A stretch of 28,830 bases of DNA from a virus. Taxonomy: Duplodnaviria > Caudoviricetes. The notes beneath the pieces were generated by a model. It was given only the letters and a program-made list of their open reading frames with translations, did not search any database and was not told the origin of the DNA. Positions 19,723-26,273 of the stretch are shown piece after piece. The translations under genes were made by a program, and so were the position numbers. The stretch spans positions 1 to 28,830 of IMG/VR virus record IMGVR_UViG_3300017978_000027; one strand, given 5' to 3'. Each line of letters begins with the position of its first letter. Position 1 is the stretch's first letter.

Positions 19723-20160
19723 TTAGACCTCTTTCAAAGTATTAAAGCCAACCGTCTTAAATCCTTGACTTTCATAGAATTTAGACACTCGTTCAATGTT
19801 TCCGACACCAGTAGACTGCCCGATTTGAATGTAGTTCACACCTTTATCTTCAGCCCACTTTGTATATTTTTTAACAAGTTTTGATGCAATCAAACCACCT
19901 CTGTGAGATGGCTCAACATATAACAACAAATCTCCAGAAAGCAATTTTCCTTTAAAGATTGGATGCTCGTATGTGTAAGCAATGAACAATGCCACAGGCT
20001 CTACGTCATAAACAACAATCGTTAAAAACTTGTCGCTTTCTACAATCTTTCTAACGCTCTCATCACAAGCAATCATGTCAGAGAAGACGCTTTCATCTAA
20101 AAAATTAGATAAAAGTTTAGCCACATCTTTTACATTGTGGCTTGCCTCTCTGTATTCCAT
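19723..20160 (-). CDS. GNAT-family acyltransferase
   Basis: LLYVEPSHRGGLIASKL (acyl-CoA motif A), WAEDKGV, KFYESQGF. Confidence 0.85.
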   Translation of the reverse strand: MEYREASHNVKDVAKLLSNFLDESVFSDMIACDESVRKIVESDKFLTIVVYDVEPVALFIAYTYEHPIFKGKLLSGDLLLYVEPSHRGGLIASKLVKKYTKWAEDKGVNYIQIGQSTGVGNIERVSKFYESQGFKTVGFNTLKEV

Positions 20161-22244
20161 TAGCCTGGGATTTCCACGTTAGATGTAATGCCTGCGCCAA
20201 CCTTCATGGCCTTCAACCGAGCTTCAGCCATGAATTCTTCTTCTCTCAACTGCATCTTTGCGGCTGCTTTCTCACGCTCCAACTGAATCTGAGCCGCGTT
20301 CTTTTCACGCATCAACTGCAATTCAGCAATAGCTTTTTCACGCGCCAATTGAATGTCAGCTTCAGCCTTCATCTGTTGTGCCTGAATGTCAGCCTGCGTC
20401 TTAGCCATGTACGCTTGAATTTCAGGCGGCACAGGTGGCTGCTGCGGTTGTTGTGGCTGACTCATCATCTGATCTTGTTCAGGTGTAATGGCCTTGTAGA
20501 ACTCAGCAGAATCTTTGAAACCAGCGGCTTCAACCATACGGCCCAATGTATTGCGGTACTGACCCATAGAAACTAGCGGGTTAGCTGGCCCCATTTGCTG
20601 AAGCACTTGCTCTTGTTTGGCGAGAACCATGTTCAACATAGCCATTTGCTCTTGGCGATTACCAGCGCCGAGGCCCACGTTAATGTCAACATCGTACTGG
20701 TTAGACCACTCACGAGGGTCAAAAGCTGTGTAGTTACCGCGCATACGAACGATACGAGGCTTGTCTTGGTACTTACAGAGAAGATGCAAGATGCCTTTGA
20801 ACAGCTCTTTAACGCCTGTCTCAGCAAAGATTCGAGCAATCATCTCAATCTTGCCAGCAGCACTTTGTTGCATAGAAGCAACAGCGGCGGCGGTGACGTT
20901 TTGCAGGATAGATGGGTCAAGACCTTGGCTTGCTTCGGTCACGCCTGTGCGCTTTTGTTGGATTGAATCCAAGTATTGCAGCATTGGGAAAGCCTGAGAA
21001 GCCACGTTTTGCACTGCCAACTGTTGCACAGCGCCAGCAGACTTTACGCGAATTACACCACCAGCGGTAGATGTAAGCAGGTCATCCATGTTTACTTGAC
21101 CGTCAACAGCCGTAACGCGAGCGTTGTTAGTCAGATACAGGTTATCAAGAATCTGGCGTGTGATGGTTGTTTTAATCAACTGAATGTCAGTTGTACGATC
21201 TGCTAAAGATTGACCAAAGAACTTGTGTGGAACTGGAATAGGGCAGATTGAGTAGAACGGCACATAGTCACATTCTTCATCGCTCAAAATGTCATTGCCA
21301 GCATAGAACACTTGGCGCAGTTCAGCGATACCGTCATCATCCATATCGCACTTAACGTAGCACTCAAAGACTTCAACCGTAGTCATTGCCTCATCGCCAC
21401 CAGCCAAGTCTTCAGCCAATTCACCATTGGAGAAACGAGCCAAATGCTCTGGTGTGTACGTTAGCGCACTAGAAGAAGGCAAGCCTGTTACTACGTCTTC
21501 ATCAAATCCCATAGCGATCAAGTCGCTGCGGGTCATCAATCGGCGGTGAGCAACAAAAGGCGAATCTTCGATTGTCTTGGCTCGTTTAGAGATCAGGAAT
21601 TCTTCAGGTGGCACGTTCTCAACGACAACGCGACCAGACTTAGACTTTTTGCCAACCGTTACGCTGAAAGACTTGTAAGTGACGGGCTGACCCATCTGGT
21701 CAAGCACTTCGTTGCCTTGAGGGTCGAGCAAAATATTCTCTACTTCATCCTTGTCAACAACTTCCATTGACTTATCGGACAAAAGCATTGCAAGCTCATC
21801 TTCAGAAAGATCGCGGTACTTTTCTTTCCGCACATCTTCTTTGTCTTCCCAATAGGCTTTGACCACGCCAACCTTTTGCAGCAGCGCGTCTTTGAACCAG
21901 TTGTGAAGAATGATCGTGCCTGAGTTATCGCGGTTAAACACCCAATTGACGTACTCAGTCGCTTGTTTAGCGCCAGCTTCATCATTAGGGCCGCGAGGGT
22001 CAAAGCGAACAACCTCATCCGAGGCTGTGAAGATTCGCACCAAAGGCGGCAAAGCGCCATCAATGGCCTCTGCAACCTCGCCAGTTACGATGCTGGACTT
22101 GCCTTCAATCTCGTTGCCGTAAGGATTACGAAGGTATGCCTGCAACGCCTCTTGGCGCTGTTGGGTTGTTTCTGTTTCTAAGAATCCGAGGCTACCGTCA
22201 ATCTCGGCTTGGATTATCGACTTGAGTTTGTCTTGGCTCATCAT
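20160..22244 (-). CDS. Portal protein (P22/SU10-like)
   Basis: 694 aa; WFKDALLQKVGVVK, ENVPPEEFLI, PHKFFGQS, C-terminal coiled-coil barrel. Confidence 0.92.
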   Translation of the reverse strand: MMSQDKLKSIIQAEIDGSLGFLETETTQQRQEALQAYLRNPYGNEIEGKSSIVTGEVAEAIDGALPPLVRIFTASDEVVRFDPRGPNDEAGAKQATEYVNWVFNRDNSGTIILHNWFKDALLQKVGVVKAYWEDKEDVRKEKYRDLSEDELAMLLSDKSMEVVDKDEVENILLDPQGNEVLDQMGQPVTYKSFSVTVGKKSKSGRVVVENVPPEEFLISKRAKTIEDSPFVAHRRLMTRSDLIAMGFDEDVVTGLPSSSALTYTPEHLARFSNGELAEDLAGGDEAMTTVEVFECYVKCDMDDDGIAELRQVFYAGNDILSDEECDYVPFYSICPIPVPHKFFGQSLADRTTDIQLIKTTITRQILDNLYLTNNARVTAVDGQVNMDDLLTSTAGGVIRVKSAGAVQQLAVQNVASQAFPMLQYLDSIQQKRTGVTEASQGLDPSILQNVTAAAVASMQQSAAGKIEMIARIFAETGVKELFKGILHLLCKYQDKPRIVRMRGNYTAFDPREWSNQYDVDINVGLGAGNRQEQMAMLNMVLAKQEQVLQQMGPANPLVSMGQYRNTLGRMVEAAGFKDSAEFYKAITPEQDQMMSQPQQPQQPPVPPEIQAYMAKTQADIQAQQMKAEADIQLAREKAIAELQLMREKNAAQIQLEREKAAAKMQLREEEFMAEARLKAMKVGAGITSNVEIPG

Positions 22245-22386
22245 TTACCTTTGCTGGCCTGCCCAACTTAGGGCGTTGCTCCGATTGTAACGACTTTACA
22301 AGATTTTCAAGCTCTGTAACACGGTTTTGTAAAAGTGCAAAAGCACGAGCATCAATCAGGTTTCCCTGTTTCATCATTAGTTGCAT
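22198..22386 (-). CDS. Small coiled-coil protein with AT-hook-like motif
   Basis: TGATG overlap with the terL stop; RPKLGRPAK. Confidence 0.55.
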   Translation of the reverse strand: MQLMMKQGNLIDARAFALLQNRVTELENLVKSLQSEQRPKLGRPAKVNDEPRQTQVDNPSRD

Positions 22387-23645
22387 CAGACTACCCATTT
22401 CGCTGGTTGGTTAATAGATTTACCCCAAGTAGACGTAGATTCGTCTAACCCGATGGCAAGGTAACGGAAAGCGTCACTTGCGTGTGACGACCAATCGTGT
22501 AGTGGGCGCTCAAAGTAGATTTTGCGCTTTTCATCATAGGCTCTGCGGTAATTCTTCAGCGCGTTCAAGCCAATCTTGACGTTTGGCACGTTAAACCAGC
22601 ACCTTGGCAGAATCCTGCGAACAGCTTGAATACCGTCATCAACACCCATGCGAGGCGCAATCTTGATATTTAATCCTGCGTCTGTCAGCATTTCCATGCG
22701 GCTTTTACCTGTCCCAAGCTCTCGAACCTGTACGTCATGCGGCAAGATATGCTCGGCTTTGTCGTAATTGTTGTTCCGCAGCCAGGTGACGTAGTTATCA
22801 AGGCCAACGCCATTGTTCTCGTAATAGTCAATCAAACGAATCTCTGAGCCTGCAATCTGAGCCACCCAGATAGCCGTACTGTCCCCCATGCCTAAGTCCC
22901 AAGCCGTGACCAGCTTACAAAGGTCATCCCTTGGAATCTCTTGAACGTGTTTCTTTTCCTCTAGATCGTTAATCAACGAGCCATAGTAAGAACCCTCAAC
23001 AGCGGCGTCAAACGAACACTCAAACTCTTGTAGGTACTTATCGTCACCCATCTCAGACATAGCAGCCTTCAGCTCTGATTCAGCAATCACTTGAGTTTCC
23101 GATGCTTTGAACTCAAGCAAACCCCAATCGTCTTCTTTTTCTGCTCTGTCTCGCAGTTCTTTGAAGTGATTGTGGCCTTTAGGCGTTCCGATAAATAAGC
23201 ACCAACCAAGTCGGTCTGCAAGTGCAGGTCGAACAATGTCAGTCCAGATTTTTGGGTTTTGGTCGCCGATTTCATCAAGAATCACCCCGTCAAAGTATTG
23301 ACCGCGAAGGCTCTCAGGGTTGTCTGAGCCGTACAACTGGATACGTCTGCCCCAGAAGTCAACCCGTAGCTCTGAGATGTTTTCAGTCCCGCCCATTGGC
23401 ATTGCGTACTTCACAAGGTAATCCCACGCTACCCGCTTGGCTTGTCCGTAGGTTGGAGCAATGTAGGCGTAGCGAGGCGCTTCTTTGCCATTAAGGATTG
23501 CAGCTTTAATCAAGTGATTGATAGCCGAAACAGTCTTACCCATCCTTCGATGAGCCACCACAACCGAAAAACGCTTTTCGTCAATCAGGTCGTGAATTTC
23601 AGATTGTTGCTCCCTTGGCGAGTAGGGAATGACTATTTCGCCCAT
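22386..23645 (-). CDS. terL: Terminase large subunit
   Basis: Walker A HRRMGKT, Walker B GVILDE, IGTPKG, nuclease AWDLG and HDWSSHASDAFRY. Confidence 0.96.
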   Translation of the reverse strand: MGEIVIPYSPREQQSEIHDLIDEKRFSVVVAHRRMGKTVSAINHLIKAAILNGKEAPRYAYIAPTYGQAKRVAWDYLVKYAMPMGGTENISELRVDFWGRRIQLYGSDNPESLRGQYFDGVILDEIGDQNPKIWTDIVRPALADRLGWCLFIGTPKGHNHFKELRDRAEKEDDWGLLEFKASETQVIAESELKAAMSEMGDDKYLQEFECSFDAAVEGSYYGSLINDLEEKKHVQEIPRDDLCKLVTAWDLGMGDSTAIWVAQIAGSEIRLIDYYENNGVGLDNYVTWLRNNNYDKAEHILPHDVQVRELGTGKSRMEMLTDAGLNIKIAPRMGVDDGIQAVRRILPRCWFNVPNVKIGLNALKNYRRAYDEKRKIYFERPLHDWSSHASDAFRYLAIGLDESTSTWGKSINQPAKWVV

Positions 23646-23967: not shown

Positions 23968-25086
23968 TTAGTCTAACAGATTTGTCCTAGGAAACCATTG
24001 TTCATAAGGTTTGTCGTTAATTTCAAGAATTTTGTATAACGAAGGGTCGTAGGTTACATAGTTGACTGAGCCTTGAACATCTGGCGAATTGTAGATCAGG
24101 CCAGGGATGCCGCGCTTCTTCATTGCCTCTTGAATGTTTAAGCCAGTAACGTCTTGAGCAATCAGCTTTCCAACAATGTCGCCACCAAGGTCTGTATCTG
24201 CCAGCCCTAGCTCTTTTGCAAATGCTTTAACTTCTTTTGATTGCTGTGAGATAGGGTTATCGTATTGCAGCATTGAAGGCAGCGCCTCATCTGCAATATC
24301 TAACTTATACAAATAGCTTTCTTTCGGGAAAGTGTCTATCTTGTCAATGATGCTTGATGCCTTCTTTGCAAACTTCTCATCGTAGTCACCACTGTTTACA
24401 AATGTTTCACGCAAGTTCTTTGGGCTTTCATGAAGCATTGCAGCCTCTAAAACTTCCATAGAATCGTAATCCTGCTTCTTTTCAGCAGCTTTATACAAGC
24501 CCATTAGCTTTTCTTCATAAACAGGGTCTCTAGGCGCATATTTGCCTTCTGCTTCACGTTTTGCAGCAGCAGCATAAGAACCACGAGTGTAGGCATATCC
24601 TTGCTCTGGAGTTCTTGTAACGTCAAACTCAGGAAACAACTTTCCGCTTCCATGCCATGCTTGAATTGGTCTGACAGAGCCTTGGCTCAAGTCACCCAAC
24701 AACTGAGCTGGCAGACCGCCACGCTCCATGACTTGCGGAACAACTCTTTCAGCCAAACGCTCACCAGCACGACCAGCTGCCATTGCGCCACGCTCTACAC
24801 CACGACCAAGCAAACCAGCAGTAGGAGCCACGGTCATTGCGGCTTCCATTACTTCTGGTCGGATTTGTGTAGTCATGCCGCGACCAGTAGTCATTGGCTC
24901 ACCGTAGGCAATTCTTTCGGCTGTCTGCTGTACCGCTGGAACTCCTAAAAGATTCATCAGCATCTCAGCAGGCGGGTTGGAGTACCCAAATGGCTTGGCG
25001 GCAAATCCTTGCGCCTGCTTTAGACGCTCGGCAAGCAGCCCCATTAATGGGTTTTCTTGTGGGGTTGCACCGATATAGTCAGCCAT
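23968..25086 (-). CDS. Protein with a C-terminal ADP-ribosyltransferase-like (polyvalent-protein type) domain
   Basis: AWHGS..F.EFD, G.AYTRGSY.A, YLYKLDI, L.YDNPISQQ, GIPGLIY, NYVTYD. Confidence 0.65.
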   Translation of the reverse strand: MADYIGATPQENPLMGLLAERLKQAQGFAAKPFGYSNPPAEMLMNLLGVPAVQQTAERIAYGEPMTTGRGMTTQIRPEVMEAAMTVAPTAGLLGRGVERGAMAAGRAGERLAERVVPQVMERGGLPAQLLGDLSQGSVRPIQAWHGSGKLFPEFDVTRTPEQGYAYTRGSYAAAAKREAEGKYAPRDPVYEEKLMGLYKAAEKKQDYDSMEVLEAAMLHESPKNLRETFVNSGDYDEKFAKKASSIIDKIDTFPKESYLYKLDIADEALPSMLQYDNPISQQSKEVKAFAKELGLADTDLGGDIVGKLIAQDVTGLNIQEAMKKRGIPGLIYNSPDVQGSVNYVTYDPSLYKILEINDKPYEQWFPRTNLLD

Positions 25087-25259
25087 TACTTCATCCGTTT
25101 TTTCATCATCTTGGCAGCTTCAGAGATGGAGATTGCCACTGCCTGCTTTGGGTTTGTGACGACTTTGCCACCTTTGCCTGAATGAAGCTCGCCTTTTTTG
25201 TACTCCCCCATCACTTTTGCAAGTTTGGCGTGAGCAGCTTTATTGAGCTTAGTTCCCAT
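25086..25259 (-). CDS. DUF6496-like small basic protein (not in ORF track)
   Basis: MGTKLNKAAHAKLAKVMGEYKKGELHSGKGGKVVTNPKQAVAISISEAAKMMKKRMK; overlaps both neighbours by 1 nt. Confidence 0.8.
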   Translation of the reverse strand: MGTKLNKAAHAKLAKVMGEYKKGELHSGKGGKVVTNPKQAVAISISEAAKMMKKRMK

Positions 25260-25675
25260 CAGTCTTCTTCCTTCATCGGCTCAGATTTTTCCCACTGGCG
25301 ACAGACGCGAAGCGTGTGACAAATGAATGTATATTTATTACAATAACCGCGACCACCACCGTCTTTGTCAAATTCGTCTTGAGGCACGACTTCCATAGCC
25401 TCTAGGGTTTCTGGTTGGTCATCAAAGTATTCGCAATTAGCGCACAGCTTGCGTTTTGCTTGATCTGGAGAGATGCGCCAGACGTTAGCTAGACCACGCC
25501 AGAATTCGCCATTTGCTTCAGCCGTTTTGATTGGGCCAAGCATTTGCGTTTCCACCAAAGTGTCGCGTGTTTTTTTGTTTGATTCTGCTGTCAAGCCTTC
25601 GATAACGGGCTTTTCTGCCTCGATTTCCTCGATTTCAATCTTGATTTCAGCAGCAGGGGCGAGTAAGCCAGCCAT
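25259..25675 (-). CDS. Cys-cluster (HiPIP-like) metal-binding protein
   Basis: CANCEYF...GRGYCNKYTFICHTLRVCRQWE; GAAAGG SD. Confidence 0.62.
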   Translation of the reverse strand: MAGLLAPAAEIKIEIEEIEAEKPVIEGLTAESNKKTRDTLVETQMLGPIKTAEANGEFWRGLANVWRISPDQAKRKLCANCEYFDDQPETLEAMEVVPQDEFDKDGGGRGYCNKYTFICHTLRVCRQWEKSEPMKEED

Positions 25676-25696
25676 ATAGAGCCTTTCAGTTAAAGT

Positions 25697-25867
25697 TGTT
25701 GGTTGCCTAGGAGCGACCTAAGACCTCTTGGGATGCGCTTACACCCCCTCATTCTTTGCCTAACAAAGAACCATCTCAACCAACACGACTGAGGACTACG
25801 GATTTACGCATACAGCCTTGGAGCAACTATGCAACCGACCAAGATGTAATCCTCATGCGTTTTGGTT
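25697..25867 (-). ncRNA. Structured 5' leader RNA of the late operon (two overlapping folds)
   Basis: Long stem 25866-25846 with 25799-25779, and a four-way junction closed by 25785-25777 with 25705-25697. Confidence 0.6.
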
Positions 25868-25873
25868 TTCTGT

Positions 25874-25901
25874 ATTTTACCAAAAAAGTGGGCAGAATCA
25901 A
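25874..25901 (-). promoter_or_regulatory. Candidate late promoter
   Basis: TTGATT-16nt-TAAAAT with extended -10 TGg; predicted start ~25867 coincides with the first leader stem. Confidence 0.6.
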
Positions 25902-25909
25902 CTACCCAT
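25882..25909 (-). terminator. Rho-independent terminator ending the nin-like operon
   Basis: TGGGTAG-TTGATT-CTGCCCA hairpin followed by CTTTTTT. Confidence 0.7.
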
Positions 25910-25931
25910 AAGTGCAACTGCAAATTGCACC

Positions 25932-26273
25932 TTATTCTAGTTCGTAATATCGTCTTAGGTCAGGCACAGGCACGTCTTGAGGCCAGAGCTTTGCAGATAC
26001 TAAGCGTTGCACCGTCTTTCTGTGCGCCATCTGCCACAAGTCCTGTCGTTGCTCTCTTGTTAGGGTAGACCCTTGGTCAATAGAGGCGTGACAGGTAAAG
26101 CATAGGCTTGCAATCAGGTTGTCGTCTGCCTTGCGCCCCATCCCTTTGCCACCGCCCCAATTTGTGTGGGCAGCTACAACAGTGCCATCTTCAACGTAGC
26201 AATGCTGGCAAGGAATGTCTCTTGCGGCTTCCAATAGCTTTTTGCTTCGGATGTAAGTATGTTTCTTAATCAT
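25932..26273 (-). CDS. Zn-binding HNH-like nuclease (DUF1364/DUF968-like)
   Basis: PCQHC...VVAAH...GKGMGRKADD...LCFTCH. Confidence 0.8.
   Translation of the reverse strand: MIKKHTYIRSKKLLEAARDIPCQHCYVEDGTVVAAHTNWGGGKGMGRKADDNLIASLCFTCHASIDQGSTLTREQRQDLWQMAHRKTVQRLVSAKLWPQDVPVPDLRRYYELE

Follow-up and report, generated by a model that had tools for sequence, protein, structure and literature searches.

Swappable non-coding RNA cassettes before the virion operon of a lambdoid phage: a likely RNase III precursor that overlaps a tRNA-shaped module

Introduction

Why does a lambdoid phage keep a strongly folding, non-coding stretch between its last nin-like gene and its virion operon? The question is raised by a 28.8-kb virus record of lambdoid gene layout, whose 28,830 nucleotides were analysed as a whole and are here called the window. 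The plus strand carries Erf-like and exonuclease genes. On the minus strand, to which all signals and RNA modules described below belong, the nin-like region ends in an HNH gene; after it come a gap of 256 bases, a gene for a protein of 138 amino acids, and then the terminase, portal, head, tail and lysis genes. The gap is filled by an element of two overlapping RNA folds, A and B. An earlier note had taken them for the two states of an undescribed RNA switch, antiterminator or tRNA mimic controlling the late genes in cis. Comparison of the element with its relatives points to another role.

Results

The HNH-type nuclease gene (25932..26273; PHROG 131, E 7e-27) is the last of the nin-like region and contains at its end a predicted promoter-like site, P1 (25934..25963; consensus match 9/12). 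It is followed by a short leader hairpin with the word CAGTTGC (25912..25930) and by an intrinsic-terminator-like hairpin with a T run (25882..25908). Together these two fold at a z-score of −4.10, and the terminator is kept in 12 of 64 relatives. A second predicted site, P2 (25874..25901), lies inside the terminator: its −35-like TTGATT occupies the terminator loop (25901-25896), its extended −10 ends at 25874, and the spacing would place the start of transcription at about 25867. Promoter-like sites as such were not above chance in a 3-kb scan (5 found, 3.3 expected). P2 is a putative promoter: it matches the consensus, and 12 of the 64 relatives keep it, which speaks in its favour.

The word CAGTTGC was found less than 300 bases from the start codon in 57 of the 64 orthologous leaders, with a −10-like site a short way upstream of it and a terminator downstream. 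It is far better conserved than modules A and B and, judged from the sequences, may be the better candidate for a late-control site.

On its other side the element is bordered by a Shine-Dalgarno-like site (25682..25688) and the 138-amino-acid gene (25259..25675), which heads the packaging and virion operon and has no assigned function. The genes for the large terminase subunit (22386-23645) and the portal protein (20160-22244) lie further downstream. Between the first late genes and terminase, a 372-amino-acid gene (23968-25086) gave a weak Pfam match, below the cut-off, to ART-PolyVal ADP-ribosyltransferase (E 0.001). The earlier note recognised no Q homologue in the window; likewise, we found none among 49 ORFs searched with PHROGs or among 12 upstream and downstream ORFs searched with Pfam, in a record that is possibly incomplete at 28.8 kb.

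Both folds, with all the sequences quoted for them, were recovered on the minus strand where the note had placed them. Module A (25779..25866), delimited by family search, covariation and consensus register, is a carrier stem of some 20 bp, interrupted at its centre by a pyrimidine mismatch. Its helix of 5+3+2+10 pairs has the two-turn length (20–22 bp) and central mismatches of an RNase III substrate, as which it is predicted to act. Its loop of 50 nt is termed cargo x (25798..25847). Module B (25698..25784) is an 87-nt cloverleaf: an 8-bp closing stem, with its closing strand at 25705-25697 as read from the sequence, holds three hairpins placed by sequence and fold (25770-25752, 25747-25730 and 25722-25706). 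In addition, the loops of hairpins 2 (25739-25736) and 3 (25715-25712) are mutually complementary, a pairing not previously noted, both sides of which change in relatives. The folds are indeed mutually exclusive, as they have one strand in common (25777..25785), which serves either as the 3′ foot of A or as the 5′ strand of the closing stem of B.

The 235-nt stretch folds at a z-score of −3.10, and none of 200 shuffled sequences folded as well. The values are −4.06 for A alone (0 of 200 shuffles as good) and −4.05 for B alone (1 of 200). Folded by itself with ViennaRNA, the A–B unit divides between the foot of A (0.58) and the closing stem of B (0.42); with 26 coding bases added, A wins (1.0).

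As a four-way fold with an 8-bp closing stem, B has the cloverleaf and acceptor stem of a tRNA; it lacks consensus D and T loops, a 7-nt anticodon loop and an encoded 3′ CCA. ARAGORN and Rfam (whole window at gathering thresholds; 25600-26000 in E-value mode) returned nothing meaningful. The term tRNA mimic suits the class to which B belongs. In a blastn search against 50,697 cultured phages, the sole match of the window leader was 24 bases on the Shine-Dalgarno side.

The two-arm pattern of A occurs in at least 119 listed IMG/VR loci, with an estimated 550 or so stored stretches, and in six contigs of GTDB genomes, five of them from Burkholderiales, including prophage-like regions of Undibacterium and Polynucleobacter. 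A core-anchored scan of loci L001–L193, two more loci and the window gave 194 A units in 149 loci. The upper stem was fixed by the search pattern for most units and the foot was left out of it: 148 of 151 distinct arm pairs, picked by their upper stem, have four to five of five foot pairs, and no such case arose in shuffled loci. Covariation of the upper stem comes from 27 non-canonical arm types, found as neighbours, in which both members of a pair have changed. The loops vary freely. They divide 182 distinct units into 105 cargo families, 69 of which were seen once, and the cargo families show compensatory changes of their own. Cargo x itself recurs before other B modules in two IMG/VR phages (L340 and L373, the only true homologues among 70 loci of its pattern scan) and in a contig of run X7.

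A small hairpin with a GGAAAG loop recurs just 5′ of many A units (L089, L100, L115, L133, L180, L192). Rfam did not bear out a twister-sister-like stretch of L115.

Behind 112 of the 176 A units with enough sequence, the shared strand can close a 7-bp stem, against 14 expected. The interiors of these B modules form 73 families. Some are tRNA shells in which the D and T arms are kept and the middle is replaced; the B module of L141 scores 47.8 bits as a tRNA. The B module of the window was found in three further contexts, namely behind two different A cargoes (L002, L026) and alone, without any A, before the terminase region of L427. The alignment of this type keeps 31 of 31 pairs, with three pairs changed on both sides, in only four rows from about two lineages. 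Loose pattern scans (120, 57, 38 and 51 loci) matched mostly by chance, the true homologues being only L002, L026/L057 and L427, and a metagenome scan for this type added no further ones.

In Burkholderia phage CSP3 the A foot, the shared strand and the B end all differ from the common form and still pair; the same was found in L191, L192, HK633 and phiEt88, and the cases include Undibacterium and Polynucleobacter prophages. This three-way covariation rests on few cases, because in the freshwater set B closes strictly behind 106 of 152 units that have the common core word and behind only 1 of 22 units with other words. The pairs of each fold covary, and both folds are under selection. At predicted equilibrium, the 112 units give a mixed picture: the foot of A exceeds 0.8 in 60 and B in 20, while both are intermediate in 22.

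One common B type (L486:1440-1530, L487, L488, L490, L492–L497, L551:757-884) has complementary loops in its first and last hairpins, at the places of the D and T arms of a tRNA, and interiors of 39–179 bases. In L116 (1167-1203) a full-score Rfam abiF RNA directly follows the end of the B module and is itself followed by a T run, the single such case among the loci examined.

The 138-amino-acid protein led to 68 loci, 64 with enough upstream DNA; 22 of these have an A unit and 42 do not. Twelve relatives share the terminator-promoter of the window. Four are filled and eight are empty, running from terminator-promoter to start codon in 22–24 bases. Joints of empty alleles, skipping 182–197 bases, were also found in runs X1 and X2; the RNA runs are assembled contigs with small shares, X1 is probably DNA, and a part left uncovered in X2 and X5 carries no weight. 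The two modules do not travel as a pair: 17 of 21 repeated A cargo families occur with at least two B families, and 15 of 17 repeated B families with at least two A families. Both are also stacked in tandem arrays, with many units far from any start codon. A and B are neighbouring but separate RNA cassettes. Covariation shows each to be conserved, each is exchanged without the other, and most close relatives lack them. Their gain, loss and shuffling would rather probably come about by recombination at short words of the stems; these words recur as direct repeats because the shared strand is the pairing partner of both modules.

Such behaviour, together with the repeats at the joints and an imperfect hairpin with a variable loop, might suggest DNA-level recombination sites of the attC or REP kind, carried by gene-less mobile cassettes. 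We regard this as extremely unlikely. The foot sequence is free to change provided that pairing holds, G-U pairs are frequent on the transcribed strand, and the units are co-oriented with promoters and with tRNAs (10 of 10 tRNAs near freshwater units lie on the strand of the unit); nor did PHROGs reveal an integrase or HUH transposase in the window. Integron attC sites were considered and rejected, as the foot pairs vary freely with compensation in place of an invariant AAC/GTT core.

The late leader is a favoured slot of the family, and early leaders and tRNA-gene neighbourhoods are used as well. Of 98 first genes extracted behind family members, 80 were scanned: 15 encode terminase subunits, about 11 are early or regulatory genes, and most have no family. 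For 23 of 78 first A units, a −10-like hexamer stands immediately before the unit, compared with 3–11 at control offsets. These figures, the absence of a Q homologue from the searches above, the position between promoter and Shine-Dalgarno site and the similar stability of two exclusive folds are what a cis-acting switch or put-like antiterminator tuning the virion operon would lead one to expect, and this was the view of the earlier note. The comparison does not support it. Besides the 8 of 12 same-promoter relatives and the 42 of 64 orthologous leaders that do without A, the partners of A and B are interchangeable, B stands alone in L427, arrays place units away from start codons, and family members also precede early genes. 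Hence neither fold shows a fixed linkage to the same downstream gene. Gating of a terminator or ribosome-binding site was not found either: there is no terminator downstream of B before the start codon, and forcing one fold or the other alters pairing of the Shine-Dalgarno site only modestly, to a degree that hinges on long-range pairs formed with coding sequence. The put RNA of HK022 is a fixed two-hairpin antiterminator RNA needed for growth. The element resembles it as a promoter-proximal structured phage RNA but is optional and variable, and no two-hairpin RNA is kept at the promoter in all relatives. A dedicated late-gene switch is therefore quite unlikely.

What A may do instead is suggested by its stem. 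The consensus for E. coli RNase III sites, which its own source calls weak (PMC4357697, in part), fits A best in a single register on each strand, and the two registers together give a 2-nt 3′ overhang. The window stem scores 10/16, a value that 9% of random paired helices reach, on a consensus derived from E. coli. Members of the A family mostly score 10–13/16, a typical one having a G-C flip at one consensus position, and five enterobacterial copies score 12–15, where 12 is reached by 2% of random paired helices; the bulged stems of L486, L494, L495 and L497 were read by eye and then scored. An overhang of this kind is typical of RNase III. The enzyme is encoded in both prophage-bearing Burkholderiales genomes that were checked (2/2), the host of the window itself not being identified.

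Two characterized loci serve as a check on the register. For DicF of the dicBF operon in prophage Qin, the rule picks exactly (7/8) the published end of the 72-nt RNA, which is attributed to RNase III in the part consulted of PMC5069750 and lies two bases before a B-like shell. The Qin stem encloses that shell; A of the window encloses a separate cargo and overlaps the 5′ strand of B, and the window element has no DicF-like seed. In lambda, a homologous stem lies just behind the late terminator, and the rule puts the cuts behind +209 and +270, counted from the late start, which we take to be the mapped RNase III sites of the lambda late leader. A paper by Daniels and others from 1988, cited in PMC7547250, reports by its title RNase III sites in that leader. 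The lambda stem and A share the slot behind the short-RNA terminator of the late promoter, a stem of about 20 bp and a short cargo loop; their arms align, and in both the base that directly follows the predicted cut forms a pyrimidine mismatch. Unlike the lambda stem, A of the window is a betaproteobacterial version of the sequence whose foot is shared with a downstream B and whose cleavage is predicted, and the A family forms stackable arrays with more than 100 cargo families.

A is quite likely an RNase III site. The predicted cuts, 25858|25857 and 25786|25785, would release a 72-nt hairpin RNA (25786..25857) with a 2-nt 3′ overhang and leave one base before B. Fold A would then be the uncut precursor. 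On cleavage by the host enzyme the cargo RNA would be freed and the foot of A would lose its support; the shared strand could now close B, one base from the new 5′ end, as a second, tRNA-shaped RNA, and a tRNA-processing nuclease may trim the leftover base. Taken as a whole, we consider it likely that the element is a pair of exchangeable non-coding RNA cassettes which follow a promoter-like site, A being a precursor cut by RNase III and B closing thereafter.

Relatives in cultured phages link the family to tRNA genes. One B type matches 168 phage records (short matches, E up to 0.5). The HK633 copy, in which B ends in a discriminator base and CCA, matches 638 of 5,426 E. coli genomes, 89 of them over most of its length. 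B-type shells stand among tRNA genes in D3, RCS47, Bas80 and Gerry. Near freshwater units tRNA genes are about four times denser than in controls, in small numbers (10 in 175 kb, compared with 6 in 439 kb).

The A cargo of L115 matches 46 cultured phage records and is 84–94% conserved in unrelated phages. Four of these records were fetched; they come from T4-like, N4-like and Otagovirus phages, and in each the cargo is part of a tRNA cluster and has a different closing stem. Since the cargo is kept while the closing stems differ, the stem appears as a socket and the cargo as the conserved unit. This bears on a simpler use of the stem, in which RNase III punctuation merely gives the late messenger a new stable 5′ end and the loops are tolerated passengers. 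The stem evidence and the leader position suit that explanation equally, and so do the 69 of 105 cargo families seen once. It is nevertheless unlikely, as passengers would have to account for compensatory changes within cargo families, for a cargo maintained in unrelated phages within unrelated stems, and for one loop-loop pair of this cargo that takes three pair types in six copies. Empty alleles, being common, also argue against it.

Several features of these neighbourhoods were observed. An unannotated RNA of 47 nt, probably pseudoknotted and without an Rfam family, is conserved between tRNA genes of lytic phages, T4-like, N4-like and others (L115:502-559, L482:1201-1244, L483:1210-1257, L484:1201-1253, L485:1201-1247, L192). 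Ten-codon frames like the tag of tmRNA occur in the leaders of HK633, RCS47, Bas80 and Magnus (L486:1226, L494:561, L495:1006, L497:956), three of which give weak, sub-threshold Rfam matches of tmRNA type. In L491 (1433-1650) the CCA end of a true tRNA-Asn gene already contains the beginning of an A stem.

Discussion

If A and B yield two small RNAs, known phage RNAs offer several comparisons. Phage PAK_P3 makes an abundant late processed RNA without a start of its own, sRNA2 or ncRNA2, whose function is given as not known (PMC4933390, PMC10914365, both in part). It lies between two tRNAs (L549:2008-2127; 86307-86426) and consists of a 7-bp acceptor stem and a T-arm with a swapped interior; its 5′ end, as mapped in the accessible portions of these papers, is base 1 of the acceptor stem. 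In this it is like the B families Y15 and Y17, which are also tRNA shells with swapped interiors. It differs from the window element by having no sequence likeness to B and no A stem. By analogy, it may be a precedent for a B-type product. The reading as a tRNA shell does not appear in the text consulted of either paper. T4 RNAs C and D are likewise described as abundant late processed RNAs of unknown function (PMC9697503, in part).

The products might work by base pairing, as antisense or sponge RNAs comparable to the anti-sRNAs of lambdoid late leaders, DicF or C4/CI; processing would be the same and only the job of the product would differ. AgvB and AsxR, which lie at the PR′ moron site of lambdoid prophages, are Hfq-bound anti-sRNAs of 51–60 nt; each has a promoter and a terminator of its own, and their variable part is a seed at the 5′ end (PMC4104026, as far as its consulted text goes). 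The element shares with them the late-leader slot and a design of constant plus variable part, and DicF adds an example of RNase III cleavage next to a B-like shell. Unlike in AgvB and AsxR, the variable part of the element is a folded domain inside a stem; the cargoes are tightly folded, pseudoknotted and without a U-tailed terminator. P1 C4 and P4 CI are promoter-proximal cloverleaf antisense RNAs matured by host nucleases. The window element differs from these in giving no Rfam match of C4 type and in having no antisense target found in the phage, where complements of x or y reach at most 10 bases, no more than in shuffled sequences, within a record that may be incomplete. We therefore hold a base-pairing role to be very unlikely.

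We tentatively propose that the released RNAs act in trans, imitating the shape of host RNAs or serving as decoys for them, with host defence as the most plausible target. This role is favoured because of the diversity of the cargoes, their exchange between unrelated phages, their tight tertiary folds and their residence among tRNAs. Phage tRNAs have themselves been argued to counter host anticodon nucleases (PMC10264068, in the part available). A wider form of the proposal is more doubtful: Proteobacteria phages could share a recombining library of more than 100 folded small RNAs in RNase III and tRNA-shell sockets, an RNA-only arsenal of counter-defence with decoys for anticodon nucleases, toxin–antitoxin pairs and RNA-sensing systems, and the overlap of the A foot with the B stem could be a timer that holds B unfolded until the RNase III cut.

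The earlier description of the element as uncatalogued is confirmed within our search, which found no Rfam family and no paper describing the A/B family and left most subscription journals outside. The nearest entry is Rfam STnc100 (RF02076), which enterobacterial relatives match below threshold (34–39 bits, cut-off 47) and which matches neither the window nor the freshwater members. STnc100 is mentioned near the Pas sRNAs in the consulted part of a preprint (bioRxiv 10.64898/2026.05.13.724894). None of six motif words occurs in four table and text supplements of PMC10690425, the portion of that work that was consulted; the motif may be among the unnamed candidates of its alignments. Phage leaders with RNase III stems have been described before, as have processed phage RNAs of unknown function. 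New are the Burkholderiales-type stem at scale, the coupling by a shared strand to tRNA-like shells, the counts of free combination and the register check.

We know of no purpose assigned so far to the RNase III sites of the lambda late leader, to T4 RNAs C and D or to sRNA2 of PAK_P3. The family described here joins a socket (the stem), a shell (the tRNA-like module) and a large set of mobile cargoes, and makes phage leaders that look empty readable as a catalogue of defined RNAs that can be excised. Copies in lambda, HK633, Bas80, D3, Aeh1 and Burkholderia phage CSP3 make deletion and swap tests easy. If the cargoes are decoys, they would form a new, RNA-made layer of phage counter-defence; if they are not, the stems would still serve as transferable devices for releasing defined RNAs in Burkholderiales.
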